A stretch of DNA of 59,736 nucleotides, the filler included, from Basidiobolus ranarum (Eukaryota): the NCBI GenBank assembly GCA_040143965.1. It is 6 parts of 6 records of this genome, joined end to end, with 100 filler letters (N's around TTAATTAATTAA, not from the genome) between each part and the next. Parts side by side here need not be neighbours in the genome. Positions count along the whole stretch, not along the records: positions 19,966 to 29,843 come from JASJQH010007645.1; 5 more parts are not named here. One strand, 5' to 3'. Shown piece by piece: positions 9,885 through 49,884 of the stretch. The translations under genes and the position numbers were made by a program. The notes beneath the pieces are model-generated. The model saw only the letters and a program-made list of their open reading frames with translations, had not been told where the DNA came from and made no database searches. Each line of letters begins with the position of its first letter. Positions within the stretch are counted from its first letter, which is position 1.

Positions 9885-9984
9885 NNNNNNNNNNNNNNNN
9901 NNNNNNNNNNNNNNNNNNNNNNNNNNNNTTAATTAATTAANNNNNNNNNNNNNNNNNNNNNNNNNNNNNNNNNNNNNNNNNNNN
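9885..9984. other. Artificial contig-joining spacer 1
   Basis: 44 N + TTAATTAATTAA (stops in all six frames) + 44 N. Confidence 0.98.
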
Positions 9985-19865: not shown

Positions 19866-19965
19866 NNNNNNNNNNNNNNNNNNNNNNNNNNNNNNNNNNN
19901 NNNNNNNNNTTAATTAATTAANNNNNNNNNNNNNNNNNNNNNNNNNNNNNNNNNNNNNNNNNNNN
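19866..19965. other. Artificial contig-joining spacer 2
   Basis: Same 100-nt N/TTAATTAATTAA/N linker. Confidence 0.98.
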
Positions 19966-20449
19966 CTGATTTTGCTTCTTTTTTAGTGTTTCAGATTGAT
20001 TTTGGGTATTATTCAATCAGCTAAATATAGTTTTAATGGTGTTAAGTTAAGAAATGGTTGTTTCCTGATTTGTACATGCTGGATATTACTTGAATCAAGG
20101 TACTACAATTTTGGGCATTTCTTAGAGGCTACCAATCATGCTGCAACACACTTTTTTCCTTTTTCACTGCTTACTTGACTGGAATTCTTTGTTCTCAACG
20201 ATTTGATTACATCTTTCTTTTTAATCATTGATATAAATTGCTTAAATTTCTTAGCAAATCCAAATCACATATGTTATTTAAGCAACACCATTATATTAGG
20301 CTGCAGGCCCATTGATTTCCTCATCTCGAAACAGGTTTGATAAACATTGTGAAAGAATGAATCTAACACTTTTTTGCGGAAGGCCTTTAAATACCTTATT
20401 CAAGTTTTATACCTTGGATTCTTAGTCTGATGCTGTAATTAATCTCCTA

Positions 20450-21985
20450 GGTTTCTTCAGTGAGGCTCTAATTGATTCTTTGACTCTGTTGGCTTAGGCT
20501 TGGTCTCATATTCTATAAATACTATTGAATAATCCAAATTTCCATACATCAAGAGCATTTTCTTCTAATGTAAACATTAAAGCTAGACTCTGAGCCATAT
20601 GGTGCCATCAGTTATACCAGAGCATTGTGGTTGATTCATATAGGCCTATGTGCCTTAGTCATAATAACTAAGTTGGTTAACTGAAGTTAAAGTATTGCTC
20701 ACAGTTATCAATCAAGTAGTGACACAATGTAAATTAACCTTGAACCATTCTCTGATTTAATCTACTTTAAAATATAAGCTTTGATAACAATGTAAATGAT
20801 GATACATTGCTCAATTCTGATTAAGCCTAAGCCAAGTAAGTTGGTGTTCTTAAGTAAAATTGAGTACAATACCAATAGTCTGGCATGCCCACTTTATCTA
20901 TGCATATGTCACTATTTTTGGAATATATGCAGGGCTTGAAGAAGGAGCTGATTTCCTGCAAAGAGTAGCATAGTTTGAATATGATGGATACATAGAGAGA
21001 AGTGGCCACAGGGCACCAAAGAGTTTTTCTTTCATTTACTATTCCAATCTTTACCAAAGATGGTAATATTCTATTTTTTTTCCACACTACATTGTGACAA
21101 CTATCAATGTTGGGGAGGCAGATTAATCTCCAATTCAATTTGTTAGGAGTATTAATTGCTATAGTTTTGAAAATGAATTGGTTGTAACAGATCTGGGAGT
21201 GATACCATATTCTATATATGAATCTATTTGTGAAAAAATGACAATTACAGGAGTTATGGTATTCTTGAAGTAGAGTGATCCTAACTAACAATTTTTTGTT
21301 ACCTTACTCTGTATTTGTAAGAGTGATCTGGTGCTCTGAGCAGTTTTCTCTTGTACTGTATTGAATTAACTTGGTTGGAACTTTTAGAGATATGAGCTAA
21401 CAATGAATGTAGGTTATTAACTGAGGAAATACAATTATTTTCACTTGTTATATTTCTAAATTAAATATGTTATATCTAGATAAGATGTGAGAAAGAATGG
21501 TAACTGTTACAATCCAGCTTCATTAAAGAATTCCAGCATCTCTGCAGATTAAGTGCTTATCAGGAGTTTGATCTTTTAAACCTTTCTGTCATAATCTAAT
21601 GACCAATATGAGTTGGCTTGTATCTTTTGGACATATTCAATATGAATCTATCTTTGTCTTTAGATGATTTAAACTCTGCCAGTAAACTGTCACATTGCTT
21701 CATAATGCTACTAAATAAGAAGTTCTTAGAGTTTATGCTTTAACATGAGCTTGAATGCTTTAGATGCTATCAACACTATTGTCAGGCCAAAAGTGTCAAG
21801 ATAGGAATCAGAAACATATCAAATTGAAAGCTCTTGTTTGGTTGTGTTGAATAAACCTATCTGCTTTTGTATCCAAACTATCATGGATTGTACAGTTTAA
21901 CCATACAAGCTGTTGTATCGTGACTTTGGATGTATCACCTGGCAAACTCTTATTGAATAAAGGACTGTTGCCACTTTATCATTTA
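20450..21985 (-). mobile_element. Crypton-like (tyrosine recombinase/Ndc10-II domain) transposon relic
   Basis: Ordered fragments across frames read MVSLPDLL, PTLIVVTM*CGK, LWCPVATSLY and AYM...MAPYG. They resemble Crypton/Ndc10 motifs ELPDL, ALVxxMxNGKT, CPVGALAFY and AYL..LP...MAGF. The region is CpG-depleted with many stops. Confidence 0.4.
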
Positions 21986-22096
21986 TAGCAAACTCTCTTT
22001 GACTGAAGAAAGGATGAGTAGGATAGCTAGTTCTGGTTAATTTATAAGTTATCATTAGAAGTTGGTCACATCACTAGGCATGTCATGGTCCATGTT

Positions 22097-22489
22097 TGTT
22101 GACTAAATTATGTATATTCCACATCTTGATTAACTTTAGTTAGGATAAAGCTATCAGAGACAGAGAATAATGTATCTATGGCCCCTATATCTTAGTTGTG
22201 AATAAGTCTATATCAATCATCCATATGTTATATTACTCACACATACTTATTTTATCTTATTTCAGAAATACTTCCCTAACTGAAATTTGTGGATTGTTAT
22301 TGCAACAAACCTGTCACCATTTAATCCAATTTGAATTGACTATATACATACTGCCATAAAATCAATAACTACTGATTGTACTGTTTCATCTTTACTCTTA
22401 GCAACCCTTAAAATTACAATTCAAGTCATTGAATGCATATATAGACAAAAATACTATCATAGAGAAAATTGGAAATTTAAGATGCAACA
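22097..22489 (+). mobile_element. Solo LTR, family B
   Basis: TGTTGA...TGCAACA with flanks ATGTT/TTGTT (4 of 5 match). Internal gtatctatggcccctatat and aatactatcata match the reverse complement of 39563-39818. Confidence 0.55.
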
Positions 22490-24449
22490 TTGTTTAATTT
22501 TAATCACAAAGCTAAACATAGACCACTGAACATGGCCTCTACCCAACATCATTTCCTCAAAGGCTATGTTTCTCTTTGATATAGTCAAGAGATGGATTGT
22601 TTATGGTTAGGTTGCAGCTATCGATGATACAGAGTCATCAGAACTGTTAGAGTTCTACCAATATTATGTCCAGGTTCAATAATGACCAGAATGACATCAA
22701 TTATATTCTCTACTCCTACAATCCTTTTGTGGCAAAATCATGAAGTTCTTGTATGGAGCCATTGTTATTGATAGGGCAGTGACTGTTGTTACTGCTTTCA
22801 GTTTAGATTCAACCATGTTTGTCATTGCATAGTCTTCCCTAGTCATTAATTCACATTGCAACATTATGTTTTGATTGAGTGAAGTGGTCTGCTTACTTTT
22901 TTTTGGTTTTTGTGCTGCACCTTTGTTACTTTCTTGATACTAGCTCAGAATTTTTGATTAGTTCATTACATTTCTCCCCTTCTTTCATTGTAGAGGTGAG
23001 ATATTTATTTAAAGAGTAATAATCCTATGGAATAGTTGGGTTAAAATAAAATTAACCTAATATGTAAATCAATCCCAATGTCACATCTACTCAAGTAGAA
23101 GACAATTTATTTTAGAAAATACTGAACCAGAACCAATAGTAGATAGTTTTATCTCTTGATTAGAGCATCAAAAACAGGTGTTTATCTTGGTGCAAACAAC
23201 TCAAAAAGGTATAATTCTTTGATGGGATACCTCTGGTGCTCAGTGATCACCTCTGAGAGTTAGTTACATTCATTTACAGCTTGATGGGTGATAAAGTTCA
23301 TCAGTGTTATTAGGCTAAGCCACATTAGAGTTAATTATTCATGTTAGTCTGAAATATCATGTTTGTTTAGACTGATAGTGACATTATTATCACATTTGAT
23401 AAACAGAGTTAAATCACATGCATTATGGAGCTTCAACATAGCATAAGCACTTTTGTTTGCTTAACATCGAGATAGAGTGGGACAACAATGTTTCTGTTCC
23501 AAGTCAAAAATTTTGAGCTAAGCTAGATCAGATACGTTGGGTTTTGTAAGGTGAACATTCATTAGATACTTTGGATGGCTAACTAACCCAATGACTTTAA
23601 TACTGGTAGTGATGTATTTTTACTTGAGTACAGGCAAAGGACAAGTTACTTTTGCATTTTGACCTGACTAGAGATACCATTCAAAGTTACAGTTTTAATC
23701 TAATCAAATGAGTAGCCAATAATGTGTCAAGTTACATCAGAGCACAAAATAACCAAATTGTACTGTTAATTTTGCACTTTTATCACTTCTACCCATTTGC
23801 AAATATCCATACATAGCCAAGACCAGTTCAACTCTGAAGGGAATGAATAGGGATTGTTACATTGCTATTAATAGACTCTGGTTCTTGATGTCACTATCTC
23901 ATATATATTCACCTGACCTTGTTGTTACCCTCAATGTTTAAATGCTGCAACATTCTGATTTAATGGCCTCTATATTGATGACACTGTAGCTGCAGTCATT
24001 ATGGCCAAACAACTATAACTTGGTGTGATGTCATAGCAATTTCTGACTAAAGCAATTTCTAACTAATTCTGATAAAGTTTGTTTATTCCAAAAAATATAA
24101 CATGGATGCAATGCATGTCTAGAGATCAGGATGCACATCATAAATGCAAAAGGAATCATAGTGTGATGAAATTAGTGTTTATAACACAATAGCTACCAAT
24201 GTTGCATTAACTTGAAATTTTACTCTATTTCTCACTTTTTTAGTAAGTGAGACAATCAAGAACAATACAAACAAGTCTGTGTCTATGTTTGGTGTAGGGC
24301 GCAAGTTATCTTTGTCATGAGTGATGAGCTTACTGATCTGCCTAAATGCATATTCAGAATTGCATTGAGTGAGAGAAGTCCAACAGCATTCCTGAAAGTA
24401 AAAGATTTTTTGATAAGTAATATCCAATGGAGCTGGCTATATAGGGACA

Positions 24450-27408
24450 GAGATACAATGTAAATTACTGCAGAAACCTGATGATTCAAATAAGATTAAC
24501 ATTCATTGATAAGATTTTATCCCTAACAAAAATACAATTGAATTGATCCAGATTGGATCCACCCTCCAAAATAGCAAAACTGTCAGAGAACCATGTTTGA
24601 ATATTGATCCTCAAATTTGGCATGCTTTATTCATTATCCAGCAATTTTTGCAAAAATATAATTTTTGACTGGTAAATTACTGGGTTTACTGCTCTAGGAA
24701 TTTGATTTAATACGCATGCCTTGATTTAGATATTTTAGGCTTTGAATTCCAGCCATAATGAGAATCAAAATATACAAGAATCTTATTGTGTTTAGTCTCT
24801 ACATATGCACATACTTGACTGATTAGACATAACTCCACAGCATTAATATGCTTTACCAGCAAACTAATGGTGGAGAAAAGCTAAACATCTGAGTTTTTGA
24901 ATAGCACTGACACTTGGCAAATAGCTGACTCTTGTTATCATTCACAATAAGAATAAGCTCTTGGATTTTGGCAAATTTCCATGATGAATTCAGCCAATAT
25001 ATCCCCAACTTGCAGTCAACTAATGTCCTGACACAAGTAGATGTGTCATTGCTTGAATAGATTACCCCATGGCTAAGACAATAATTCTCCATAACTCCAT
25101 CTATCTCACCAAAAAGTCTGTCTTGCAGCTTTCCTAAAAATCAGTCAGATTATCACACAAGCAAATTAGTCCAATTATAGAGGTACTTACTTTATGTCCA
25201 TCAATGGGGCTTTGTTGCTGTTATTGTGCTCAAAGAATGCAAAAACCCATTAGCACATTGAAAAGAGCCCTTTGTTGGCAGGTTAATTTGCTCTGGAGTC
25301 TCCTTAACCCATTGCATCATATCCATCACTGATTTTGCTGATACACTGTAAATCAGATTACCATGCAGTAATATCGACAATTTCACACAGAGCTTCATTG
25401 CACTGCAGAGGTGCTCCATGAGGAACTCCCAGAATGTATAGCAAGGGCCTATAATCTCTAAGCATTGTGAAAGATGCAGCAGGGAATGTATTGAATACTA
25501 GCATAGATTTACTCTATCTTTAAACTTTTAATAAAGAATTTCATATCCAATTACAAAATCTTTGCACAATTGCTGTATCTGCCTGAGATCTGCCAATGTG
25601 AGTTGATGCCATATGAATATATTAACAATATTGACAAACAACTCCCAATGTTGCCATTACTCATCAGGCAGAAATCTTTCAAAATTCCACTTGAATATAC
25701 AAATCCAATACCTCCTGTCTTTGCATTTGTATAAGGACCTAGATGAGTGGATATTGATGGAAGTCCTGGTAAAATATGATGGCTACTTGATATTTTCAAG
25801 CATTTTCCCACTCAATTCAAGCTTTGATCCTATCTCAAATGGCTCATTCATGTAGAATTTTCCACCATAGAGTGGAGCACGTAGTATTGGAATGTTGTTG
25901 AATAGTAAGTGCATAGTGCCTGATGGGAACCTCTGGCTCCAGCTGATTCCTTTTAGCTATATAATCTCAGGCTTATGGTTAATACCAAGTTTGATGTTAG
26001 ACCAACTATTTGGTGAATTGATAGCAGTTATCATAGTGAAATCTGACCAGGCTCTTGATGGTAAAATCATGAAGTTTAGTGTAGTATTTGGACAGTAGTA
26101 ATGCATATGCCTGTTAGAGTAAACTCCATTGATTTGACAAAATCTACAGCAAGATAGTGCATTGTGCTCACAAAAACCTCCAACTTTACTGATGGCAGGA
26201 GTGCCACCAATACATACAATGATATTAGCTTTAATAAAATATTCACCCATCTGAACCCCATTAGATAACCATTCAAATGCCACAATCAAAGGCTCCAAGG
26301 AGCCATCTATAAGCACAGATGATTTAGGTCCAGATATGATGGATAGTATCAAGATATTATGACTCTTATACCATTTAAAAGGAGGAGGATTTAAGTTGAT
26401 TAAGATTATTGGCAAGCAAGCCTTTCCAATGGTATATTTGTTTAGTGAGAAACCATCCAGAGCCAATGCAAATGCTTGATTATACATGTTCTCAAAGAAA
26501 CCTTGACTTTTCAGACTCTGGTAGTGTAATCCATCAAGTATATTGGTAATACCATCAGCTTTAGAGTGAGTACTTTGGTACTGGATCAATCATCTATATT
26601 TGGGTGATTTCATCAAAACTTTAACACAGGGAATCAATGGTATATAAGCCAAACATGAGTGATATTTACCTGATTCAGTGATTGCCAATTGTGTGCAAAC
26701 AGTACATGACTTCAAATTTCTCAGATCACCAGTTAAAGCCAAACATCCATTTGGACATGAAGGTAGCTTAATTACTGAAGGATTATAATTCATACAATTG
26801 ACAAGTGTTTTCCACTTGTACCAGGTCTGCAGCAAGCAACAGCTGCCACTCAAATATGGTAAAAGTGTAAGAAAACCAATAAAAACCTGGTTGCTAAGAT
26901 TGAATTGAACTCTCCACTCCTCAATAATCAAAGCTGCTTGCTTTACAGTAAGTGTTATGAGTGGACTAATGTTTGCCAATAACAAAGAGTCTATAACAAA
27001 ACCATTGTCTTCTTCTTCAACTTCAGATATACAACCATTGGTACTGGAATAACCAAGGTCAACAACTAGCAGCAAGTCCACAAAGTTGTCTGGACTTCTT
27101 GGTTTGATCAAAGTTGCATTTTGACCTACATCAGTCTGGTCATATAACTTTGGTAACTCCACAGTATCTTGACTTTGGGCAGTGTTTCCAAAACTTTGCG
27201 GCAAACTACAGTCAGTAGACTCAATGGTCAAAGCTAAAGTCAATTTAGTGCACTTATTGCTGTTGTTATACACCAGGCTTTGAGCAGCTGATGGCTTTGT
27301 ACAGTGACTATGCTGGTGATTAATGTTTCTGTGAGACCTCTGGCTTTCATAGCAGAAGAATTTGTGACAATAACAGTGGGGCTGCTTACAACATTTGTGT
27401 TGTGGCAT
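24450..27408 (-). mobile_element. CACTA/En-Spm (Tnp2-family) transposase pseudogene
   Basis: Motifs include SCPNGC..CTVC..YIPL, ILDGLHYQSLKSQGFF..AFALALDGF, PIILINLNPPP..NILILSIISGPK, GGTPAISKVGGFCEHNALSCCRFC and GPCYTFWEFLMEHLC. Scattered stops are present, including one at 26590-26592. Confidence 0.82.
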
Positions 27409-28444
27409 GAAAAGGATATTGTAGGAAAAAGAACACCTCCTATGTAAAGGTGGTATTTTAGATATAGCCCATCAATATCATCAGCTGATTCTGAGATGGT
27501 GTTACAAATGAGTCATCAGGGTATTTACAAGATATTCCTGGTAATGGATGGCAATTTTGGTTTATTATAAGCTGTTTCCAAGCAATCTCTTTACACCTAG
27601 TTTACCATCTGAAATTTCAATGCCATTCAAAAACATTCAAAATCTAAATCAAAATTGGCTTCCAAGCCCAAGCCTGCTGGCACAAAAGGAAAAAAACCAG
27701 CAAGAACAGAGGACTTCATTGATGAGTAGTCTAGCAATCCACTATCCACTTTGGAAGGCATTAACATGCTGGGAACTAACTCAAGTAATGATGAAGCATC
27801 AACCAATTTACCAGATATGTTCCTTTCCAGCAATAGTGCAAGTGAAGAGATTGTAATCCCCCAATTACATAGCAAATCAATAGATGAGGAAACCTCAACC
27901 AAAAACCATCAAACCATCAACTTTCAAAATGGCTACTTTTATCACTATTGAACAACCCTCCATAGAAAATTTGGATGGAATTATTACAACAAGGGAATTG
28001 CAGGCATAACACCATAATGATTTTATGCAATCATATGTAAAAACTACAAAGTTGCTATTAAGGCCATGACAAGCAATAATGCCACAATATTGCAATTGAT
28101 GCTGCATATGGAAGCTACTAGTCAACAGTTAGAGAGTCACTCAACAATGATACAAGACCTTCATAATGCTGTACTTGAGCTACAGCAACATGCCACTCCC
28201 TCCATCCATTCTCATACAGGATTGCAATCAGTCCCACACCATGAATATGAATGTTACCGTGACAATCTAACAGAGCAGAATATGTGTTGGAACATTAAGC
28301 CTACACAACAACCTAAAATTGCTTGGGCACATGAAAGTAGCAATCTCATAGAAAAACTGGTAAATCAAAAGACTCTGAATGTCAGAGCTGCTGTCATTTG
28401 CTCTGATGATGAGTGGTTTTAAATTTTGCAAACTGTGTGGAATC

Positions 28445-28727
28445 TGTTGAAATTATTTAGGGAGAAATATTGGGCTGGCCAGGATTTGAACCTGGGACCT
28501 CTTTCACTCTAGCAAGGTGCTCTAACCACTGAGCTACCAGTCCTTGTATGCTTTGCCTATATTGCTAGGGAACCTTAACCTAGTCTGTCAATTCATGGTA
28601 CTTTGGCATTTCCACTTTACAAGCAACTGATTGGCATTTCCACTTTGTGTTCAGATGTAGTCACCATACTCCACATTTTCCTCTTTGGGAATTACTGCTT
28701 GTATCACAAGTCACCAGACTTTCAACA
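28445..28727. mobile_element. 283-bp solo-LTR-like element containing a tRNA-like sequence
   Basis: Perfect 8-bp inverted ends TGTTGAAA...TTTCAACA, with a 5-bp TSD GAATC at 28440-28444 and 28728-28732. Confidence 0.85.
28471..28543 (-). tRNA. tRNA-like sequence or tRNA pseudogene (73 nt; nominal anticodon AGA but short variable loop)
   Basis: GGACTGG TA GCTC AGTGGTTA GAGC A CCTTG CTAGAGT GAAAG AGGTC CCAGG TTCAAAT CCTGG CCAGCCC A. The D and T arms and A/B boxes are intact; the acceptor stem has 1 mismatch and the anticodon stem has 2. Confidence 0.7.
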
Positions 28728-29843
28728 GAATCTTGCCCAAAAGCACCTGGATTTGAGCCAATTGTGGAAAAACCAAAAACCAGATATTACTCTGAAGATT
28801 CTTGATTTATTTCATGTGGCTTATCCTGTGTTTTTGCAAGCAAATGGCAATTGGGCAAGTATAGGCCTATTTATGAAACATCTCAAAAATCTATGCAATC
28901 ATTGACTTGGAAAAGAAAGAAAAGCAGCTAACAAAATACTCAAGGAGCAGGAAGTTAGTAAACTCAAGGGAAAAGCTAAGGAGTCAGTGAGTTTAGGATC
29001 AACTATCTCACTTACCAAATTCTTCACACCATTACAAAGATCTGCATTTCTAGAGTCAGATATACAGACAAAAAAACTCAATATTGCCATGGAAGCAGGT
29101 ACACCTGTTGGAAGAGTGCTAAATTTGGAAGTTTATCCAACACCTGGCACCTCTCAACAAGCCAAACACCAGCAAATATAACTCATGGCTCTCCAGCCTC
29201 AACCGGTACTCTTCAAAGTGTTGAAATTAGCCCCAAAGTTAAAGGCAAGCAAAAAGCCACATAAACACCACAAAGCACCCTTGGTAGTGTCACACTACAA
29301 GGATGTACAAAAATAGCCAAAGTGTTTGGGAGTATTTTCAAAAGTATGGAGGGAAAACTCAGTGCAAGTATGCAGAAAGTGGCTTCAGAAGAAGAACATT
29401 CAACTTGACATTTGGTCTGGTGTTGACTGTGCACATATTGGGGAAGAACTTAATACAGAGTGGCACAATATTGCAGGGTATCTGCCAGATAGATGTAAGA
29501 ATGTTGATTCAGCAATGTTAATACAATGGTGTGCTTTGATGGAGATATTGATACAAACTTGTGTTGGGTAAGAGCTAAACCTTGGGTATTAAGTACTCTA
29601 TAAAAATATACAGGATAATTTATCATAGAGACTAGGGATTTTTTAGGTGACAAATCAGCATTGAAGTGGTAATTGTTTAACATTTGAGTTATGTTTTTTG
29701 TACATGTGTTGATCCATAGTTTTCTGAGATTGTAGCCAATCATTTGCAACTATTTTGCAAGATCTTGAAATTTCACTCCTGAAACTGAAAAAATTGATTA
29801 AAATCAAATCTAACTTGACAATTTTATGATGGTAAGTAAACAG

Positions 29844-29943
29844 NNNNNNNNNNNNNNNNNNNNNNNNNNNNNNNNNNNNNNNNNNNNTTAATTAATTAAN
29901 NNNNNNNNNNNNNNNNNNNNNNNNNNNNNNNNNNNNNNNNNNN
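29844..29943. other. Artificial contig-joining spacer 3
   Basis: Same linker. It truncates the NRPS that runs into it. Confidence 0.98.
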
Positions 29944-32900
29944 TACAATCATGAATACTGATTTATCAAGACAGAGTGGCACCATCGATTCTGGACAAAC
30001 ACCGAGATTGATCAAATGATGAGCCAGTTTGTTGGCCCGTTGGTTGAGTTGTGCATAGGTAAAGTATTCTGTCGTTTCAAACTGTACTGCTATGTTCTCT
30101 GGATGGAGTAATACAGTTTGTTCATACAACGAATGAATACATATCGTCTTTACATCATCTCTCAGTGAAGCTTCTTCAGATGCGATACTTTTCCCGACGA
30201 CATTGGTATGAAAATCTTCAAAGCGCTCTTTCATCTGCAACTTATTCGTTGTGAAAGATTTGATTAAGTCACTTTCAGTAGAAGACATGGCTGGAATGCA
30301 CCCCATTTTAACTTCATTATCTACGCCGATGATCGCAACGATCACAACATTCAATCGATCTAACAGGCAACTTGCCAGTTTGTTCGTTAGTGTATCCTGA
30401 TTATAGTCTAATCGAAAACAAAGTTTTTCATTCTCCGTCCAAGCATTTAGGCAAAGTCTATATTCGGTAGGTTCTATTATTTGTTCCGCCTCAAAGGTCA
30501 CCAGATGCTTGCTATCAAGCTCCACACTATCTTTAGCTGGCATTTGAAAATTGAGAATCGCATCAAATTCTACAGAGTTTTCTGTGAGCCGGCACCATTG
30601 CTTAATCCTTTGTAAAGCACAATTTTCAAAAGGTATTCTTGATATCGTATGTTGATGGATTCCTCGCAACCAATGTAGTACTGTATCATCTTCATTGTAT
30701 TGGATTCTAAATGGCAAGGTATTGATACATGGGCCAACAACTTGATCGATATGTTTCATCGGTATATTACGACCATTGGTGATAATTCCATATATAAAGT
30801 CATCCTTTTCGTAATAAGGTCGTAGTATCAAACCCCAAGCTGCTTGTAGAAGAGTTAGTATAGTAATACCCGATTTTTGAGAGAAATCTTTCAAAATCTG
30901 TGTAGGAATTTCACAGTTGGATGAAAACTGGAGACATTTGACGTGAGGACCCATATTACCGAGCTTTGGAAAGTTGCAAGGTTGTATGTCGGCCAAGTAA
31001 GTTGCCCAATAATCGGACGCTTTTTCATTGTTGAACGATTCACCTTCTTGGATACAGAATGAAATGTAGTTTTTGTAGGGGATGAACCCTGGTCTTGTGA
31101 AGTTGTTGTAAGTGGCATCCAAAACAGCCATTGTTATTTTATCCGACCAACCATCATTAATAGCATGATGGCGACTAATTATCATTCGATTTCTTACTCC
31201 ATGCATCAAGCACAAGCGTATATTAGGTTTACCTAGTGGGAATCCTTGTGTTATATCGTCTTCAAGATATCTCTTCAAACGAATGTCGTTTTCCTCATTG
31301 TCTGTGAATATATGGCTTATCTCTATGTAGAAGTGTCGCAGGATGATTTGAAGGAATGTCCCTGGAATCGTCGCAGTATGCGGATTGGTAATAAATACTG
31401 TCCTTAATATTGGTAGATCTCGAATTGTACTTTTCCAAGCAGAGAGAAGCCTGTCAGAATCCACTCCACAAGGCAAATTATAAATATCTTGTACGTGGTA
31501 AAAGGAGGCTGATCGAATATTTCCAATGATAAGGCCTTCCTGTATAGGCGAGCAAGGATATAAATCTTCAATATTCTGCACCAGATCATCACCATAATGA
31601 GTTGATATATGCCTCATGAGTTTGTCTAACTGACATCCATTTAAATTTAGCAAAGGAATATCAGAGACCGTTAGCTCTCTTTCCTTTTTGTTTGCACAAA
31701 TAGCAATAATTTCCATCATATTTCTCCGCCAAGACTGTAGCCACTGATTGATCTGGGTATCTTGATGAAGCTCATTACTATAGGATATCGAGGCACACAA
31801 GTGATTACGCTGTATTGTGACCTCAACTTCGATGGCATTCATTCTTCTCCATTTGGGGCCACACATGTTCAAGTCGACTGTGTACTCGTTATCAACTTCT
31901 TGAAATAGAGAGTCACTCTTCTCTAAATACTGAAATCGCCCGAAATAGTTGAAGCCCACCTGCATGCTATCACTGCTATAGCTTGACGATTGTTCTTTAT
32001 TTAAGTAGCGTAGAAGACCGTAGGTAAAGCCGTTGTTAGGAATGGTCCTGCGTGTATCCTTGGTCTGCTTCAGTACATCTATAATAGTGTCCTCTGGGTT
32101 GCTTTCGATAGTAATAGGATATATCGAAGTGAACCAGCCAACGGTTCGAGAGATATCGAGTGAATCATCCCACGGTTCGCGACCGTGACCTTCAGTTGCG
32201 ATTGTAATCGAATTTACATTAAATGTTTCACAATACGAGGCTGAAAGAGCGGAAAGCATGATATCCACTGCTTCGGTACTGTAAGCATCATTACTACGGC
32301 CAAATAATAGATCCGTATGTTCGCTATCTAGAGTAAACGATAAAGTGTTCACCGTTTCCATGGTATTTAAGGATAACTTGGATGTATCAATGTTTAAAGG
32401 TTGTATTGCTATATTTTTTGGCCAGTCTTCAGAATTCAATGACTCAGCATGAGTCTTTAAATGCTTGCTCCAGTTCCTGAATGACAGTGTTTTGTAAGGC
32501 AGTGATTGTCCGTTGAGTAATCTTTCTAGGTCTTCCCAAATAATACGCCACGAAACTAGATCTATAATATAATGATGAATTGTCATGAACATCAACTGTT
32601 TACCACTAGGGAGATCATAAAGTATAAAGGAGGATACTGGTCCCGTTTCGATATTAATACGTTGTTGCACCTGTGATATATTTGCTTTCAGCTCTTCGAT
32701 GTTGTAAATCCGGGCTTGTTGAACCTGCGTGTTGCTCTGCTCATTGCTCGCTAACCATTGTCTCCAACTTCCATTTTCGCAAGAGAAGCGAGCTCTCAAT
32801 ATATCATGATGACTTATAAGTTTATAGAGAGCTTCTTTTAATGCGGGTGTTTCTATAGAATGTCGCATCCTGACCAACCACGATAAATGAAAATGATGGA

Positions 32901-35575
32901 TATTTGGTTGCATAACTTCGAAAAATTGATGTTGAATCGGAGTCAGTGGAATATCAGTTCCTTCGTCGTGGATCTCCTCTATCTTTTGTTTCTCTAACGC
33001 AAAGGGCGTAAACTGGGTATAATTTACAAGCTGATGTATAGTCGGATGTTGTAGAATACTGTGAACAGATACTTCTACTCCTTTCTGACGACATTGTGAG
33101 GATATCTGAATTGCAGAAATAGAATCACCACCCAAGTGATAAAATGAGTTCCCAGTACCTATAGACGATTTCTCTACATTCAGTACATCACTCCAAACTT
33201 CTTGCAATAGCTTTTCCATGGGGGATGAAGGTGAGTCTGTTACCTCTTTCACATCTCGTTTGAAGTTCCCACTTCTATATAGCATCTCTAGCATTTTGAA
33301 GTCCACTTTCCCGCTTGTATTAACTGGCATTCGTGTTAGAGGTATCCATACAGTTGGAACCATATATTGTGGTAATTTCTTTCGTACTAGATCTTGAACT
33401 TCAACGAGCGCCGAAAGATATTCATCTTGAATAATCGAAATTGCTTCACCTTCCGAGATAGTACTTTCGAAAGTCAAGAAAGCTACTAGGGCCTTGTTCT
33501 TCGTGGATTCCTTATTCAGAAGCCTTACCGAAGCCCTACTGACATGAATAGATTCATTTAATGCGTACTCTATCTCTTCTATTTCGATCCTTAAACCATT
33601 TAGCTTAACTTGGTTATCTTTACGGCCAAGAATGGTGATCGAGCCATCAGGATTAAATCTTCCCAAATCCCCAGATTTGTACAAACGTTCCCCAGCAGAG
33701 AACGGAGAGCATACGAAGGATTTTTCTGTAAGTTTAGGCCTATTCAAATAACCTCGAGCAAGTTGGGGACCTCCAATACAAAGTTCACCTACTGCTCCTA
33801 AAGGGATCAGTTCCAATTTATCGTTAAGGATATAGACTTTGTTGCGGCCCATCGGCCAGCCAATATTAGTGCATGAAGTCGATTGTTTCACTAAATTATT
33901 TACAATAGCATATACAGTTGTTTCAGTTGGGCCGTAACCGTTATAGAATTTTACTTCACCAGCCCAAGCATTGCGGACGTTTTTTGTGAGCATCTCACCA
34001 CCCTGTTGAAGTAGCTTAAGCGTAGGGACTTCTTTCGGATTCAACAGAGCGGCAACAGTCGTAGTTAATTGTGCTGCGGTAACCTTCATGAGACAAGCCA
34101 TCTTGGATAGATTTGTAAGTAGATTACTCTTTGAAGCTAAACATATTCGAGACCCTGTGATCAGATTAACGAATATATCCAGTATCGATGCGTCAAAGGT
34201 ATAATTAGAGAACTGTAGGAAACGATCGTCCGGGGTTAAATTAAGAATTTTTTGATGCGCAATTGCGTAGTTAACGACACTACGGTGTTCCAACATTACT
34301 CCTTTGGGTTTTCCAGTAGAGCCTGAGGTGAAGATTAGGTAACAGAGATTGGAGGATATTAACTCAGGAACTATTGGATCTGATTCGGGGGCATTGTCGA
34401 GTGCAAGATCACTTCGATCCATCAATACCAGGTGAAGGTCAGACCATGCTAGAAACATGCTTTCCTGATCTTTGGTTGTAATGCAAATCTTGGCCTTGGT
34501 ATCCTCCAAAATAAATTCAATTCTTTCTCTAGGGTATTCAGCATCCAGGGGTACATAAGCCGCTCCAGCTTTTAGAACTGCCAATATACCAACTATCATA
34601 TCAATGGATTTCTCAATGCATAATGCCACCACCTCGTCAGGTACCACACCCCACAGTATAAGAGAATGGGCTAGTCTATTGGCACGTCTGTTCAACTCGG
34701 AATATGTGATCAGTTCCTTATCTTCGAATTGAAGAGCAACATTATCAGGTGAATCTTTCACTTGACTTTCGAAAAGATAGTGTATACAGGTATCATCGTT
34801 GTAATCAGATGTGTCTTTCTGCCATTCAGTCAAAAACAAGTATTTTTCTCTATCTGAAGTCCAATTCAATGCCCCCAATGGAGAATCAAGGTTATTAATC
34901 AATGTTTGAGCCACATGCAGGAACTGCTCTATAAGGAGTAGACCTTGGTCTTGTTGAAGGTAGTTGTCCGCGAATGTTAGTTGAAGATTTATGCTTTCTT
35001 CACTACGATTCCCTTCAATACAAATGGCAAACTACGGTAATAGTGATGATAAGGTTAGTATTGATAATCGAGTGTTAATGCTAGAATAAGTATACCTCGA
35101 GATTTTGGGCGTCTAGTGACTTTTCCTGATCACTGAAGATAACACATGTATTGATTTTGGTCAGATTTTCGTTGTATAAGCAATATGGACCTTCGTGAGT
35201 GAATCGAGTGTCTGCTATCTGCTTCAACCAAGTAGCAACAGGTAGACTATCGGTTTCATGACCAAAGGTTGACTGGAATATGTACAAATTATTTACACCT
35301 TTCTCGCAGAGTTGTGGGGAATGTATGTTTACGCCAAAGGCTACATCTGGATTTCCCGTGTAGTAGTGCAACAGAATTACCCAAGACGCGTATAGTATAG
35401 ATTTATCAATAGCCACTAACTCTTTCAACGCTGGATGTTCATAAACAAGACTCAAAGATATAGCCTTTGTTCTGGCAATTCGAAACGAATTGATTTTTGC
35501 TGTTTGGGTATTTTCAACATCAAGTAAGCGTGGGAATTGGCAAACACTAAGACTTGAAGAATTCATTAGGGACAT
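29944..35575 (-). CDS. Non-ribosomal peptide synthetase, 5' part: partial C - A - T - E - C - A (3' end lost at contig edge); one intron at 35032-35095
   Basis: Exon 1 is 35575-35096, followed by a GT...TACTAAC...TAG intron, then FAICIEG... in frame with the 1672-aa ORF. A motifs: YLIFTSGSTGKPKG, YGPTE, YKSGDL. T: LGGDSIS. E: HHYIIDLVSW, EGHGRE, RTVGWFT, FNYFGRF. C: HHAINDGWS. Second A start: TYAQLNQRANKLAH. Confidence 0.95.
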
Positions 35576-39562: not shown

Positions 39563-39818
39563 TGTTGGAGGATCTTGACATAATGGGGGTAGACTTTGAG
39601 TATCAGAAGCAACTTATGATAGTGTGTTTTAGTTATGTTATTCTTAAGAGTATATGGTGACTTATATAGTAGAAAAGTAAATCAATTGTTTGAGATATTC
39701 AGGAGTCTGTGTAATAAGATATAATAGATAAGTGGGGGTAATAAGACATACTTCTTATATAGATATAGAGATATTCCTATTTAGAATATAGGGGCTATAG
39801 ATACGTTGCTTTCTGTTT
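39563..39818 (-). mobile_element. LTR, family B (partial, runs into the contig end)
   Basis: Ends ...GATCCTCCAACA on the minus strand. 39563-39715 is a near-identical reverse complement of 49885-50037. Confidence 0.7.
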
Positions 39819-39918
39819 NNNNNNNNNNNNNNNNNNNNNNNNNNNNNNNNNNNNNNNNNNNNTTAATTAATTAANNNNNNNNNNNNNNNNNNNNNNNNNN
39901 NNNNNNNNNNNNNNNNNN
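39819..39918. other. Artificial contig-joining spacer 4
   Basis: Same linker. Confidence 0.98.
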
Positions 39919-40087
39919 GTAACAAGGAGGCTGGAAATCAAAAAACCAAGGATTGGAGAGGTTTTTCTTTTCTTTGATGAAAATAAAGTAGAGTATACAG
40001 AGGCATTCATCACCATTGATAGATGCAGCGTTTCAAATTCAAACCATTGTTGCATAAAACCTGTGATTTTGAATGATCTCTGCAGGC

Positions 40088-40200
40088 CTATCTCATCTCT
40101 ACATCATCTATATTTCATATCTATCTCATCTCTGCATCATCTATATTTCATATCTATCTCATCTCTACATCATCTATATTTCATATCTATCTCATCTCTA
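40088..40200 (+). repeat. Minisatellite, 33-bp unit x about 3.4
   Basis: ctatctcatctct(a/g)catcatctatatttcatat repeated. Confidence 0.93.
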
Positions 40201-40915
40201 TCCTATCTCCTATTAGGGGGTATGTGGGTAGAATAGCAAGATTAAAGCCGCTAGAAAGCGGATAATCACTTATTATATGTTAAGTAAAACAAGATACAGT
40301 AGTACTTGGGCCATGTGGATTATGCATGGGTTTACTATTGATTTTCTATTGATGCTTACTGACTTTAGCATTATTCAATTTAAATAAAACATCTGCCATG
40401 GTCTTTATCATCCCTAAGTCTAGGTATACTAAAGAGTTTCTAAGCGGTACTCGCGATAGACACTGGATATTGCTTATATCCATTAAAAAACTATGAGTTA
40501 GAAAACATACCACGTAAACCTATGCAACATCTGCCTACTGTGGTGAATTACTCCTGCAAATGCAAAGTAAAAGCGTTGCTTAATAAGAATTTGTAGTTCA
40601 TGCCAATAGGTTCAACATTGACACATCTAATGCACCAATAGTGATAAGTATTCAAAGTCACTCATTCTGAGAGAGAATAAAAAAGTCATTAGTTGGGCGA
40701 ACAACAGAAAGGTTAATGAGAATCTGGTTAAAGACTTCGCTTTCCTAATTATTGTTGCATCTTTCCACTCTAGGACTTGTTTGTTACTATATGAACTGAA
40801 CCATAACGCTGCAGGGAAGAGGCAAGGCTCTAATTTTTACTTATTGAACTGGCTCTCGAAGGAACTGAAAAAGAGAGTTATTCATAAATAGTACTAAGCA
40901 TTCTTCCTGATCGGT

Positions 40916-41035
40916 CTATCTTAAATGTATTATTGTTACAAGTAAATACCGTAACTTTGACTATCTTAAATGTATTGTAACGTAACTTTAACTATCTACA
41001 TGCATTGTTGTTACAAGTAAACACCGTAACTCTGA
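40916..41035 (+). promoter_or_regulatory. Three imperfect direct repeats about 250-370 bp upstream of the NRPS ATG
   Basis: ctatcttaaatgtattattgttacaagtaaataccgtaactttga / ctatcttaaatgtattgtaacgtaactttaa / ctatctacatgcattgttgttacaagtaaacaccgtaactctga. A TATATAAA lies at about 41225. The repeats are seen; a regulatory role is inferred. Confidence 0.45.
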
Positions 41036-41282
41036 GTTGGTTTCATATAATCTAAAATTTTTGTATTTCAAGAAACTAACACAACAACGCTATACTGATG
41101 CATAATCCCTGATTGCATTAACGCCCTGAGCCCTCATGCACTCTACTAAGGAGATATTTGACCTGTGACGATACTTTTTCTTCGGCAAGGTGGATAACAC
41201 AAAAAAACTCCTCCAAATTATTCTTATATAAAGTGTTAAATATACTAATTTCAGCACAGACTTCAATAACACTAAATAAGTG

Positions 41283-44200
41283 ATGAACAGACAATCTTTT
41301 TCATGTATTGTCATCGGTGGCACTACACTAACCATCGAATGTGCAAAACGACTACGTGCCGCCGGCCATATCATTCAGGCTGTGCTACCGACAGATCAGT
41401 TGGCTAAAAATTGGACTTTAGGCGAAGAAATATCTTGCGTAGGCACAGTAGAGGAGCTTAGCGCCGTTCTAGACCAGAGGCCAGCGGATGTGCTGTTTTC
41501 AATTGTTAACCCAATTATTCTACCACAGTCACTATTGAATAGGATGCGTCACACATTTAATTATCATGATGCTCCCTTGCCTCGTTACGCCGGAACCCAT
41601 GCTACTTCCTGGGCTCTATTAGAATTGCAAAGCACCTACGCAATTACCTGGCACCAAATTACCAATAAAGTTGATGCTGGGGATGTGTACGTACAGTATC
41701 CGGTACATATCGCTTCTACTGATACAGCTCTGTCACTGAACTTGAAGTGTTACCAAGCGGCGAGTAAAGGCTTCACTGAATTAGTAGAAAATCTTGCAAT
41801 GGGGACATTAAGACCTGACCCTCAAGATTTAACACGCCGAAGTTTTTTTCCACGTCATCGCCGACCTTTCGGCGCAGGTTTTTTGCGCTGGCAGCTAACG
41901 GCTCAGAATCTATCTGCTTTGGTGCGAGCTCTAAATTTTGGTGATTTTCATCCCAACTCGTTGGCTACACCCAAACTCTTGCTATCTAATTGTATCATAC
42001 ATGTGTTAAACTTGGAAATTCTAACAGAGCGTTCAGAAAATCCACCAGGCACCCTGCTGAGGATCGACTCTGATCGTTGGTATATAACTACGGGAAGCGA
42101 TACCGTTGCTATTAGCACATTCACCAGTCTTACCGGGGAGTCATTCGACCCTCAGAAGCTGGCACGACAATTAGATCTTCGCGCAGGAGACCATTTACCT
42201 TTGATATCAGATGCAGAGGCTTGCGTGCTAACTGAGGTTTATGAAAATTTATCCAAGCAAGAGACTTTTTGGGCAAGGCGCTTGCAACGTTTCAGTTCAC
42301 TTCATCCACCTTTCGATAGTGATGCGTCAGGTATCGTACGGAATTGGCAAACGACTGAATGGAATATTCCAAGCAATTTGTTGCACCTTTCGGAGGTTAA
42401 ACGTATTGAGTGCCTTTTGAGCTCTTTCATGATTTATCTGACACGAATTACTGAGAAGAAACGACTCAATATGGGATGGGCACCAATATTAACTAAATCA
42501 GTGATGGCAGATTTCTTAGCCAATGTAGTGCCATTGGAGATTGAAATCGGTTTACGGGATTGTTTTAATGGAGTTTGTGCAAAAATAGAGACTGAGTATT
42601 CACGGCTTATAAATCATTCAACATTTCCTCTTGACCTCATTGCACGTCACCCGGAGCTTCGCACTATCAGTGAATTGCGTTTGCCACGACCCTGGAAAAT
42701 CGTTATAGCCTTAGTACCAGACCGCACCTCAGAGGATATCAACAACGTTCCAGCTCAAGCCGTCACTCAATTCCTCAACGATGCGGCTCGCGGAGACTAC
42801 CTCACGATTCAATTGTGTTCAAAAGATGGAAGTTTTCGATGGATTTATGACCCAAAGTTTATAAACGATATACTCTTTGACACAAGCACGGACCCTGAAC
42901 TAATTAGTGTTAATAATGAAATCGGACACATGCCCCGTTTCTTGAAATTATTGGAAGCATTGACCAACGAACCCACACGCCCGATTGGAGATATCGATTT
43001 ACTTCATGTCAACGAACGACGTCAACTCCTGATTAATTGGAATAAAACGGAGAGAGATTTTCCCGAAAATCAAGGGATTCATCAATTATTTGAAACACAA
43101 GTTCAACGTGCACCGCATGCAACCGCGTTAGTATGCAATGATAAATCTTTAAATTATAGGGATTTGAATGCGAGTGCCAACCGCATCGCACATTACCTTG
43201 TAGAGCTGGGTATTAAGCCAGGCGACTACATTGCTACCATGATTGAGCGTTCTATGGAGCTGGTCGCTGCTCAATTAGCTATTCTTAAAGTGGGGGCCGC
43301 TTATGTTCCTATTGACCCTCATGCTCCCGTGGAGAGACAAACCTCAATAATTTCTGATTGTGCGGCTCGATTATTGATAACCAATGTGAATTCCAATGTT
43401 TCACTTACCAAGAACACGCGGTTATTCCGTATTCCTTCCATTCTCGAAAATACATTAGATACCTCGATAGCCAATCTTAATTTATTCTCTCCAGAATTGG
43501 ATGTGGCCTATGTAATGTACACTTCCGGCTCAACTGGCTCTCCAAATGGTGTGTTGGTGCCTCATCGAGCCATCGCCTCTCTAGTCATTAACAACGGCTT
43601 CGCTGACATCGGGGTCAATGATCGTGTTGCTTTTGTGTGCAATCCAGCCTTTGACGTAACTACTTTTGAAATGTGGGCACCTTTATTGAATGGGGGTACC
43701 CTGGTCGTCGTGGACCATTGCACTGTTCTGACACCTAAAACATTTGTGCAATTTTTGCAACAGCAGAAAATTAATGTCTTATTTTTAATGCCTGCTTTGT
43801 TAGCACAAATGTCGGAAGCACTACAGCCCATCTTTCCACAGTTAAAATATCTACTTTTTGGAGGAGATACCATCAATCCTGCAGTGATCAACAATATAAT
43901 TTGTAACACTCCTCCACAACAACTGATTAACGCATACGGTCCAACTGAATGCACTACCTTCGCTACATCATATGCAGTCCCTCTAAACAAAGAACAGCCA
44001 TCAAGTATCCCGATTGGGAGACCATTAGCGAACAAGCAGGTATATTTATTGGACGGGACAGGCCAACCAGTGCCACTCGGGGCGACGGGCGAATTGCACA
44101 TAGGCGGGGCCGGCGTCGCGCACGGATATCTAAATCGGCCTGAATTGACTAGCGAAAGATTTCTTCCCGATTCATTTAGTAAGAAAGCAGGGGCTCGTAT

Positions 44201-47200
44201 GTACAAGACTGGAGATCTGGGCCGTTACCTTCCTGATGGTAATATTCAATTTCTTGGACGTAAAGACAATCAGATTAAGATTCGTGGTTTTCGGATCGAG
44301 CCGGGCGAGGTAGAAACATTACTCGTTAAGCATCCCCAAGTTCAGGAAGCCATTGTACTGACAAGGGGCAAGGATTACAACAAGCACTTAGTAGCATATA
44401 TTGTAACGGAACACAAAGAGAAACTGCTTATCAACACGCTACGCGACTTGATTGCCGCTAACCTTCCTGATTATATGATGCCAGCCGCTTTCGTGCGTTT
44501 AAGCAGTTTGCCATTAACATCCAATGGAAAAATAGATCGTAAGGCGCTACCAGCACCAGACAGAGAAAACTTTACACAGAAATCCTATGAAGCACCGCAA
44601 GGAGAGATTGAGATCACACTGGCAAAGATCTGGACCGAGTTAATCAATTTTGATGAGATTGGCCGCCATGATAATTTCTTTTCACTTGGCGGGAATTCAC
44701 TTCTCGCTGTGCAGATGATAGAACGTCTAAGTCGCCTTAATCTAAAGATACCTGTACGTACATTATTCGAAAAACCGACACTCTGTGAGCTTGCTCAATC
44801 TATCCAACGGCATGAAGAAACCCTACCCCCCAGACTAATTAAGCCTGGTATCGAAAGAATCACACCAGATTTACTTTCACTGGTCAACCTCTCACAAGCT
44901 GAAATTGACTATATTACAGAAGTGATTCCTGGTGGTGTGGCCAACATCGAAGATATCTATGGATTAACCCCACTACAAGATGGAATTTTATTTCATCATC
45001 TCCTGGCCGATAATGGAGATCCCTATTTGGTCCTGACCCAAATGACTTTTGAAAGCCGGATGTTGCTTGATAAGTATCTCGATGTCATCCAGCGGATTGT
45101 GGATCGCCACGACATCCTGCGCACTGCCTTCATTTGGAAGAATACATCCACACCGGTACAGGTTGTCTGTCGTCAAGCATCGATTGTGATCTCTGAATTT
45201 ACTTTTTGTCCAACCAATGGTCCAATTCCCAAACAGCTATTAGAAAAATATGATCCCAGCAATTATCGCACTGACATAACCAAGGCTCCTTTGCTGAGTT
45301 TTGCCATTGCGCAAGAGAGTAATGGTCGCTGGTCTCTTCTTCAGCTGCTTCACCATCTCATAGGTGATCACTCTACGGTGGACGTGATGCAATCTGAGGT
45401 GGAAGCTTTTTTTAACCATCACGATTTACCAGCTGCGCAGCAGTTTCGAAACTTAGTTGCACAATCCCGCACAGATCTTAACAATAGGGATCACGAAAAA
45501 TTCTTTTCTGATATGTTGGGTGATGTTGATGCACCGACACTGCCATTTGGGCTTGCCGATGTCTACTGCGTCGGCGCACAGATCACAGAGTCACATCAAA
45601 TGCTATCGCAAGAGTTAAATGAACGACTTCGCTTCCAGTCCAAAATATTAGGTGTGACCTTAGCCAGTTTATTTCATTTGGCTTGGGCACAAGTCTTAGC
45701 ATGTGCTAGTGACCAAGATCGAGTGGTTTTTGGCACAGTCCTATTTGGCCGAATGAATGCAGGTGAAGGAGCAGACAAAGCAATGGGATTATTCATCAAC
45801 ACGTTACCTTTCCGTATAGATATAAATGAGCGAGGTGTTCGAGAAACCGTGTTACAGACCCATAAGCGCTTAGCAATGTTGCTTGAGCACGAGCATGCAT
45901 CTCTTCCTCTAGCCCAGCGTTGTGCATCCTTACCAGTCGGAGTACCACTTTTCAGTACACTTCTAAATTACCGCCACAATGCCACGAAACCTGGTGCAGG
46001 CTCTACCATATCTGGGGTTGAGATTCTGAGTACCAAAGAGCGCTCTAATTATTCATTGCTCCTTTCGGTGGAAGATTTTGGCCATTCACTGGGTTTGACT
46101 GCTCAAATCGTGTATCCATATGATCCAGCCCGAGTGTGCGATTACATGCAAAAGACATTACAGAGTTTGGTGGATGCTTTACAATATTCACCGAAAGTAC
46201 CTGTTCCACTACTTGAAATATTACCAACGGAGGAACGCAAAACTTTACTCGAAACAATGAATGAAACAGCATCACCGTATCCCAATCACCTCTGTCTTCA
46301 TCATCTGTTTGAGGATATTGTCGAGCACACGCCTCACGCTACTGCGGTAACATATGAGGATCGTGCCTTTAGTTATGCCGAGGTGAACGTGCGTGCAAAC
46401 GGTCTTGCGCATAAACTAATCGATATGGGTGTTCAACCAGATATGCGTGTTGCAGTATGTATGGCGCGTAGTCCAGAAACTGTAATAACTTTGTTGGCAA
46501 TTTTAAAAGCTGGCGGTGCGGTTTTGCCCCTTGATCCGATTTATCCGAGTGAACGACTTGTGAACATTCTTGTTGATGGAAAGCCAGTGATTCTGATAGC
46601 TGATGCAATAGGTAGAAAAGCCATAGGTGATAATACCCTTTGCTCGCTCCCTGTGCTGGCTCCAAATAGTATTCTTAACTCATCCACAACTAATCCGAAG
46701 GTAGAAGCTTTGACAGCAAAACATCTTGCTTATGTAATTTACACATCGGGATCCACTGGTATGCCGAAGGGGGTAATGATGGAACACAAAGCAGTAGTAA
46801 ACCTGATTCTAGCTCCCTCAGCTGGCTTTGAAATCAAGCCTTCCAGTCGGGTTTTACAGTTTGCATCTTTCGGCTTCGATGTAAGTCTCTGGGAAATCCT
46901 GTTAACCTTAAGTCGCGGTGCAAATTTATACATCCCAACCGATATTGCCCGTCAAGATCGCGATGAACTTTGGAAGTATCTAGAGAGAAACGAGATAACG
47001 CACGCAATATTACCGCCGGCGCTTTTGCAGAACGGGGATGATTTGCCAAGCTTAAGTAAGCCAATATCATTGATATTAACAGGGGAAGCGCCCAATTCAA
47101 CACTGATCCAAAACTTATTGCTTCGAGAAATGGTCCATCAGGGAGTCATATTCAATGCTTATGGCCCAACTGAAACGCATGTAGCTACGGTATGGGCAAG

Positions 47201-48860
47201 TGAGAGCAATACTCTTAGAAATGGAAAGGTATCCATCGGCCGTCCAATTGCAAATACTCGGATATATTTACTTAGCAAGCAAAGACAACCGGTGCCACTT
47301 GGGGCTATAGGAGAGTTATACATTGGCGGAGTCGGTATTGCGCGCGGTTATCTAAATCTCCCCGAGTTGACTGCGGAGAAATTCGTATGTGATCCTTTTT
47401 GTACGCTGGAAGATTCAATGATGTACAAAACTGGTGATTTGGCTCGTTATCTACCTGATGGCAACATAGAATTTTTGGGTCGCAATGACTTTCAGATAAA
47501 AGTTCGCGGATTTCGAATTGAGCCTGGGGAGATTGAAACTCTTCTCATGGAACATCCTCATGTACGGGAGTGTGTTGTACTTACACAAGATAAAGATTGT
47601 GATAAGCGCTTAATCGCTTACATCACAGCCGAATCCGACGAAAAGCTTTGTAGCAAGTTACGAGTCCACCTAGAAAGCAAACTGCCCGGATATATGATTC
47701 CATCGGCATTTGTACGGCTGGAAGCGTTTCCGCTGACATCTAACGGAAAATTGGACCGCCAAGCATTTCCAGAGCCAGGTGAAGGTGATTTTGCCCATAA
47801 GACATACGAAGCACCGAAAGGTAAAACTGAAGAAGCGCTTTCCATAATCTAGGCTGAGATTCTCAAACTGGACCACGTTGGCCGCTATGATGATTTCTTT
47901 GCCCTTGGCGGATACTCTCTGCTTGCCGTTAGAATGATAAGCCGTATTCGAACCATGTTGGGCATCGAAATTGCCCTACACACGCTATTTGAAGCCCCTA
48001 CTGTTGCCGAATTGGCACAAAGTATAAACAAAAAAGATATCGTGCACCAACCAAATTCCTTTTCAGTACTACTCCCTTTGAATACTAAAGGCTCGCGAGC
48101 TCCTCTTTTCTGTGTTCACGCCGTCTCTGGTTTAAGCTGGGGCTATATTGGCCTATCTAAATATTTAGGCCCCAATCAACCGATATACGGTCTACAGGCT
48201 CGCGGACTTGATGACGAGACACCAGTGGCGGAAACAATGGAAGATATGATTTCAGATTATATTCAGCAAATACGAAATGTTCAGCCTTCTGGACCATATC
48301 ATCTACTTGGATGGTCATTAGGCGTTTATATAGCTCACAGCATTGCGACATATCTCGAAGAGCAAGGTGAAGAGGTAGCGCTACTTGCTCTTCTAGATAT
48401 TAATCCGGAGTACTCATCGCCATATTTCGAAACGGAGGCAGACCGAGATTATTGGTACATCAGATTTCTTGATCGCTATGGCGACAAAGATGATCCTAAT
48501 GCCGGCGAATATTTATGGGAAAAGACTCATAATGTCATTAAGAATAATCTTAAGATATTAAAGGGGTTCTCCCCTCCCGTTTATAGCAAAGATGCACTTT
48601 TCTTTCGGGCAACAAAAGTAGAGAACCAGTCTATCCCGTTAGTGTCGCCTCACCTTTGGAAACCGTACGTTCTTGGCAATATTGAGATTTTTGACATAAA
48701 TTGCGCCCATCGTGACATGGACAGACCTTTACCAATTGCTGAAATCGCTCGTGTTGTGGCAAGAAAACTCAAGGTGTTAAAAAATAAGTCACAGCAAAAG
48801 ATGGAGTCTAATATTCCCGTACCTCCTGTCGTTGGCCCTGATGATCATATAGTTAGTTGA
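41283..48860 (+). CDS. Bacterial-type two-module NRPS: formyltransferase - partial C - A - T - dual E/C - A - T - thioesterase; one in-frame TAG at 47850-47852 (possible recent pseudogene)
   Basis: F: FNYHDAPLPRYAG...VDAGD. A1: YTSGSTGSPNG, YGPTE, YKTGDL, NGKIDR. T1: LGGNSL. C: HHLLADNGD plus HHLIGDH. A2: YTSGSTGMPKG. The frame continues through [30 protein letters not shown] into the 308-aa ORF, whose TE has GWSLG. No introns over 7.6 kb. Confidence 0.93.
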
Positions 48861-49179: not shown

Positions 49180-49320
49180 GTTTGCTAGGCAGCTAGGCTT
49201 TGTGTTCTGTGTTTAAATATTTGGGTGACTTTTGGAAGTAGTTTGGAGAATTGGGGAAATTGGTGGTTTTCACTTATTGATTTATTGAGTAGAAAGTTAA
49301 CATTTATACTTTTGTCAAGG
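49180..49320 (-). repeat. Partial copy of LTR family A
   Basis: Reverse complement of 6424-6517 (gacaaaa.tataaatg...aataagtgaaaaccaccaatttc...ttctccaaac). Confidence 0.75.
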
Positions 49321-49784: not shown

Positions 49785-49884
49785 NNNNNNNNNNNNNNNN
49801 NNNNNNNNNNNNNNNNNNNNNNNNNNNNTTAATTAATTAANNNNNNNNNNNNNNNNNNNNNNNNNNNNNNNNNNNNNNNNNNNN
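49785..49884. other. Artificial contig-joining spacer 5
   Basis: Same linker. Confidence 0.98.

Follow-up and report, generated by a model that had tools for sequence, protein, structure and literature searches.

A 283-bp LTR-like insertion with a tRNA-like sequence in Basidiobolus ranarum, probably of the Helenus kind

The window analysed here, a stretch of 59,736 nucleotides of Basidiobolus ranarum DNA (GenBank assembly GCA_040143965.1), is built of six pieces, each about 9.9 kb long, with linkers made of 44 N, TTAATTAATTAA and 44 N between them at positions 9885-9984, 19866-19965, 29844-29943, 39819-39918 and 49785-49884, and no feature is read across the joints. The element that is the subject of this work lies in piece 19966-29843, which comes from record JASJQH010007645.1. 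Elsewhere the window has an adenylosuccinate synthetase gene (51149-52429), whose product shares 92% identity with its Basidiobolus meristosporus counterpart and about 72% or less with the next matches, and long frames of the non-ribosomal peptide synthetase type at 29944-35031 (minus strand), 41280-47852 (plus strand) and 47853-48860 (plus strand), the last with PP-binding and thioesterase domains. The 1711-residue frame among these, interrupted by a linker, has a translation that by eye resembles adenylation and carrier domains. A tandem array with a 33-nt unit in an 11-nt register, made of CT- and AT-rich motifs, occupies positions 40088-40210, and a dispersed repeat gives an inverted match of 153 nt at 95% between positions 39563-39715 and 49885-50037 of two different pieces.

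The surroundings of the element are those of a decayed DNA-transposon unit, in which a Transposase_21 (tnp2) frame with an in-frame stop (25957-27471, minus strand) lies beside an accessory frame (28021-29316, plus strand); the Transposase_21 frame that adjoins this host frame covers positions 25957-26589 on the minus strand. The host frame belongs to a repeated gene family, is split by the element and is itself decayed, with stop codons of its own at 28420-28422, 28903-28905 and 29179-29181. Among the homologs of this accessory frame are a hypothetical protein from Basidiobolus ranarum and an unnamed 299-residue protein. In tblastn comparisons, the B. ranarum hypothetical protein P0121 matches positions 28360-28446 with its residues 53-81 and positions 28726-28857 with its residues 79-122, and P0122 matches positions 28039-28458 with residues 23-162 and 28726-29049 with residues 156-260. 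Both proteins align without gaps across the site, so the 283 bp together with one copy of the target duplication are a clean insertion. The first-pass annotation had claimed that removal of the insert restores the reading frame of the host; colinearity with the two proteins supports the restored continuity, but an intact gene is not recovered, since the three host stops remain. As a lone solo LTR in a dead transposon gene, the element would be without evident effect on its host.

The element occupies positions 28445-28727 and is framed by two copies of GAATC, on the left at 28440-28444 and, in the same letters, on the right at 28728-28732. Its left terminal arm, TGTTGAAA (28445-28452), and its right terminal arm, TTTCAACA (28720-28727), form perfect 8-bp inverted repeats, so the order along the plus strand is GAATC, TGTTGAAA, the interior, TTTCAACA and GAATC. 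The letters of this arrangement were read twice, and the insert of 283 bp with these ends and its perfect duplication is thereby borne out as first described. The element is listed on the minus strand under the assumption that its tRNA-like sequence is sense, an orientation that is not proven. It is non-coding, with stops in all six frames and a longest open stretch of about 50 codons wholly inside it. A perfect 16-nt direct repeat is found in its non-tRNA part, at 28603-28618 and 28631-28646, and may be a duplicated regulatory site. Apart from this repeat, terminal sequence is not repeated internally, and no tiny complete TRIM is found within the 283 bp. One unit is observed at the locus, where no paired LTR, PBS or PPT is seen.

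Structures with 8-bp inverted ends that start with TG, placed 100-1000 bp apart and flanked by a 5-bp duplication, occur exactly once in the window, and block shuffles of it (n=200) yield a mean of 0.065 such structures, with at least one in 13 of the 200. The homologous proteins that run across the site are stronger evidence for insertion than this shuffle count. A looser search, for TG..CA pairs with a 5-bp duplication, returns five pairs in the window; besides the element and family B these are 40-1367, 39975-46566 and 53246-57735, which span genes or lack LTRs and are taken as chance.

The tRNA-like sequence of the element is 73 nt long, and lies at 28471-28543 (minus strand), which is 26 bp inward of the element's left end. 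ARAGORN recognises it, as does the Rfam tRNA model RF00005, with 51.1 bits where the gathering score is 29. With the definitions of PMC10886601 (section 3.5), where box A is TRGCY..YGG and box B is GGTTC, a box A-like motif is found at nt 8-18 of the tRNA-like sequence (28526-28536, minus strand) and a box B-like motif at nt 52-62 (28482-28492, minus strand). In the Rfam alignment, the acceptor stem has one non-standard pair and the anticodon stem has two. ARAGORN places AGA (Ser) at the anticodon position, yet the shape is that of class I. The predicted fold is cloverleaf-like and has a z-score of -0.61, which means a stability no greater than that of shuffles. This agrees with the first-pass annotation, which had described a full tRNA-shaped sequence with intact A and B boxes and a broken anticodon stem. 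As read from its sequence, with this stem and a Ser-type anticodon in a class-I shape, the segment is non-functional as a tRNA. On the strand of the tRNA-like sequence, the element holds no stretch of at least four T, and the first such stretch belongs to host DNA, 101 nt downstream of the tRNA-like 3' end; the element is thus not a self-contained Pol III unit. Models in which the position of the segment derives from strong-stop DNA or from a primer tRNA were rejected, because CCA is not encoded and the segment stands neither at an element end nor beside an LTR terminus. Since the outer GAATC duplication encloses the tRNA-like sequence, this was already there at integration. What entered the transposon-associated gene, by a 5-bp staggered cut, was a non-coding TG..CA unit that already held a decayed tRNA copy.

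Further copies of the element were sought in several collections. BLAST of the element within the window returns the element alone, plus short matches with E above 0.01. A 20-nt pattern from the decayed anticodon region has no exact match in metagenome, viral or prokaryote genome contigs. A 22-nt pattern from the T-arm and acceptor has none in viral contigs and three in metagenome contigs (L001 7275-7349, L002 2115-2189 and L003 1190-1264). These three were rejected as copies of the element, being prokaryote-type tRNA-Val(TAC) genes in which the T-arm and the 3' half of the acceptor are identical or nearly so to the tRNA-like sequence over 30 nt only, and the likeness is taken as convergence at the tRNA level and not as relationship. 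Putative rRNA-like sequence adjoins the three loci, as judged by eye. At the protein level, a 108-residue frame that crosses the right end of the element (28579-28902) has two matches among 1.84 billion representative proteins, both limited to its host part (query residues 49-105) and both beginning at query residue 49-50, which is the right end of the element. No further copy of the element emerges by way of this frame, and the protein search with a 73-residue frame (28584-28802) gives no candidate; both are weak nulls, as frames of this window are not called genes in such collections.

A second set of repeats in the window, referred to here as family B, is about 305 bp long and has seven whole or partial copies, at 5048-5398, about 5805-6151 (minus strand), 6213-6517, 49232-49319 (minus strand), 50026-50377, 59077-59208 (minus strand) and 59321-59540. 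Family B begins with TGTTGAAATTA and ends with ..ACTTYAACA, and it is like the 283-bp element in its first 11 nt, which are the same, in its last 10 nt or so, which are similar, in length (305 against 283 bp) and in the 5-bp duplication. A perfect duplication of its own, ATATT, flanks the copy at 6213-6517, and the remaining copies are truncated or have no matching duplication. The copies tend to pair head-to-head, with three of them within 1.5 kb. The interior of family B is unrelated to that of the element, and no tRNA match is found in any of its copies. The common termini and the ATATT duplication indicate that insertions of integrase type with these ends form a real class in the genome. 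This disposes of the possibility, raised in the first-pass annotation, that the ends of the element had arisen by chance. Judged by its interior, family B is a separate family and not a version of the 283-bp element that lacks the tRNA-like sequence, so it gives no answer to the question of whether other copies of the element are devoid of it. Family B could be made of solo LTRs or be a separate miniature element of the integrase type. The 5' terminus that the two have in common slightly favours the opposite orientation of the element, in which its tRNA-like sequence would be antisense.

Elements with this combination of features have been published from other fungi. Helenus elements (Kojima 2024, PMC10886601), for which TRIMp3 is an alternative label, are TRIMs with tRNA-like sequences in their LTRs, with 113 families in Pucciniales and some more in Agaricomycetes. 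Their LTRs measure 120-323 bp and the whole element, in which two LTRs enclose a short internal region with PBS and PPT, about 311-1263 bp; their target duplications are of 4-6 bp, and of 5 bp in fungi; many copies are solo LTRs; and the fungal members are apparently mobilised by Copia elements (PMC10886601). The A and B boxes of their tRNA-like part are conserved and the part usually makes no functional tRNA (PMC10886601). The tRNA-like sequence of the LTR has no complementarity to the PBS (PMC10886601), which argues against an element that encodes its own primer.

The first-pass annotation had proposed an LTR that carries a tRNA-derived Pol III promoter module and had known of no description of such an element for these fungi. 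The anatomy (TG..CA ends, 5-bp duplication, absence of coding capacity, A and B boxes) fits the first proposal, but the kind is not an undescribed one, and the statement on novelty is wrong for fungi in general, where Helenus was already published. Within the collection of papers searched, neither Helenus or TRIMp3 nor a comparable LTR element is described for Basidiobolus. Zoopagomycota species are absent from Table 1 of PMC10886601; as that screen ran from Repbase seeds to related genomes, their absence from it is not evidence of absence. The element is probably Helenus-like, of a kind published for other fungi, in a phylum without an earlier report.

The more specific reading, in which the 283 bp are a solo LTR of a small non-autonomous Helenus-type LTR retrotransposon (TRIM) resident in the Basidiobolus genome, has about an even chance of being right, and the status as a TRIM is assigned by analogy with the published elements. 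Under this reading, the integrase of an autonomous LTR retrotransposon would have inserted a two-LTR element in trans, and a later recombination between the LTRs would have left a single LTR with its duplication intact. The tRNA-like part would be, or would formerly have been, an internal RNA polymerase III promoter of the parent element. The LTR would in that case be read on the minus strand, and some 184 bp of U3-like sequence (28727-28544) would precede the start of the tRNA-like part.

An ordinary LTR retrotransposon driven by Pol II, either autonomous or a large non-autonomous derivative, would leave a solo LTR with an identical integration signature, and in such an LTR the tRNA-like part would be a passenger tRNA or SINE fragment without promoter role. 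The absence of a Pol III terminator from the element and the existence of family B, which shares the ends but not the tRNA-like part, are in line with this explanation, as is the statement that "not a few" LTRs in Repbase contain tRNA-like parts and that only some of these belong to TRIMs (PMC10886601). Against it, neither a TATA box (TATAAA, TATATA and close variants) nor AATAAA or ATTAAA is present on either strand of the element. The completeness of the 73 nt and the canonical boxes beside a decayed anticodon stem further suggest a constraint on the boxes, which one copy cannot prove. A Pol II-driven source is unlikely, without being negligible.

A non-autonomous DNA transposon of MITE-like type, mobilised by a DDE transposase akin to retroviral integrases and carrying the tRNA-like part as captured cargo, would explain the perfect 8-bp terminal inverted repeats; the short TG..CA ends and the 5-bp duplication would then result from cut-and-paste movement. 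In the window, the element and family B occur only as solitary units of about 300 bp, never paired around an internal region, in the company of DNA-transposon genes (Transposase_21). The inverted repeat is, however, merely 8-10 bp long and its TG start and CA end are the usual form of an LTR, and no transposase with such ends is seen in the window. To our knowledge, few superfamilies of DNA transposons give 5-bp duplications, and none with TGTTG ends is common in fungi. An origin from a DNA transposon is quite unlikely.

The tRNA-like part could also be a one-off, a tRNA-derived retrocopy or SINE that landed in a single LTR copy or in its immediate parent, in a family that is otherwise without it. 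Only a single copy is seen, and insertion of a SINE into an LTR is the origin proposed for tRNA-bearing LTRs of the Helenus type (PMC10886601). The outer duplication speaks against a one-off, as the segment it encloses was present at integration, and a reading of the sequence around the 73 nt reveals no direct repeat, no A-rich tail and no CCA; this explanation is very unlikely. A tRNA-derived SINE of the classic type, mobilised by a LINE, would account for a tRNA-like sequence that has A and B boxes but is hardly credible, because the anatomy contradicts it: that sequence does not stand at the 5' end, neither an A-rich nor a LINE-like tail follows it, and the termini form TG..CA inverted repeats with a 5-bp duplication of fixed length.

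Two more far-reaching readings may be considered. Basidiobolus might have its own lineage of LTR elements built on a captured tRNA promoter, the first outside Dikarya and probably of independent origin, which is possible at somewhat less than an even chance; the layout of the element, with its tRNA-like module 26 bp from the LTR end and no terminator, is unusual. In a bolder version, the 283-bp element and family B would move as single integrase substrates of about 300 bp and would not be remnants of two-LTR elements. If the family is confirmed, Helenus/TRIMp3, reported from rusts and mushrooms, would reach into a fungal phylum that diverged early, and the view that LTR elements capture Pol III promoters recurrently would gain support. 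Counts of tRNA genes in Basidiobolus should be checked against such copies, since these inflate tRNA gene predictions, as Helenus copies do in rusts (PMC10886601).

Among known systems, SINEs of the tRNA-derived type (SINE2) share with the element a short, non-coding body and a tRNA-derived module with A and B boxes. In a SINE the tRNA head forms the 5' end, the tail is A-rich or of LINE type, and insertion proceeds through target-primed reverse transcription. The element is instead a 283-bp unit with integrase-type TG..CA ends and a 5-bp duplication, whose tRNA-like part, read on its own strand, covers nt 185-257 of 283 and is followed by 26 nt ending in CA, with no tail; the rejection of the SINE and PBS readings in the first-pass annotation is upheld.

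Cassandra elements, as they are summarised in PMC10886601, are plant TRIMs with a 5S rRNA copy in their LTRs, of which the promoter and the terminator are conserved. As far as that summary goes, the principle is the same, in that a non-autonomous LTR element carries a copy of a small Pol III gene within each of its two LTRs, whereas the copy is here derived from a tRNA and the terminator is absent. No 5S rRNA match is found by Rfam in the region at E<=1, where the tRNA is accompanied only by a weak match, on the opposite strand, that looks like plastid ycf2.

The closest system is Helenus, to which the element is likened by its published description. The host differs, being Basidiobolus of the Zoopagomycota where the fungal Helenus belong to Pucciniales and a few Agaricomycetes, and so does the state of the unit, which is solitary here, with no paired LTRs, PBS or PPT seen and no T-run terminator within it. 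The likeness covers every feature visible at this locus: a unit of LTR size that holds a tRNA-derived sequence with both boxes, A and B, a length of 283 bp within the range of 120-323 bp, LTR-type termini with the 5-bp duplication of fungal Helenus, no coding capacity, the solo-LTR state that is common in Helenus, and a tRNA-like part that is no credible tRNA.
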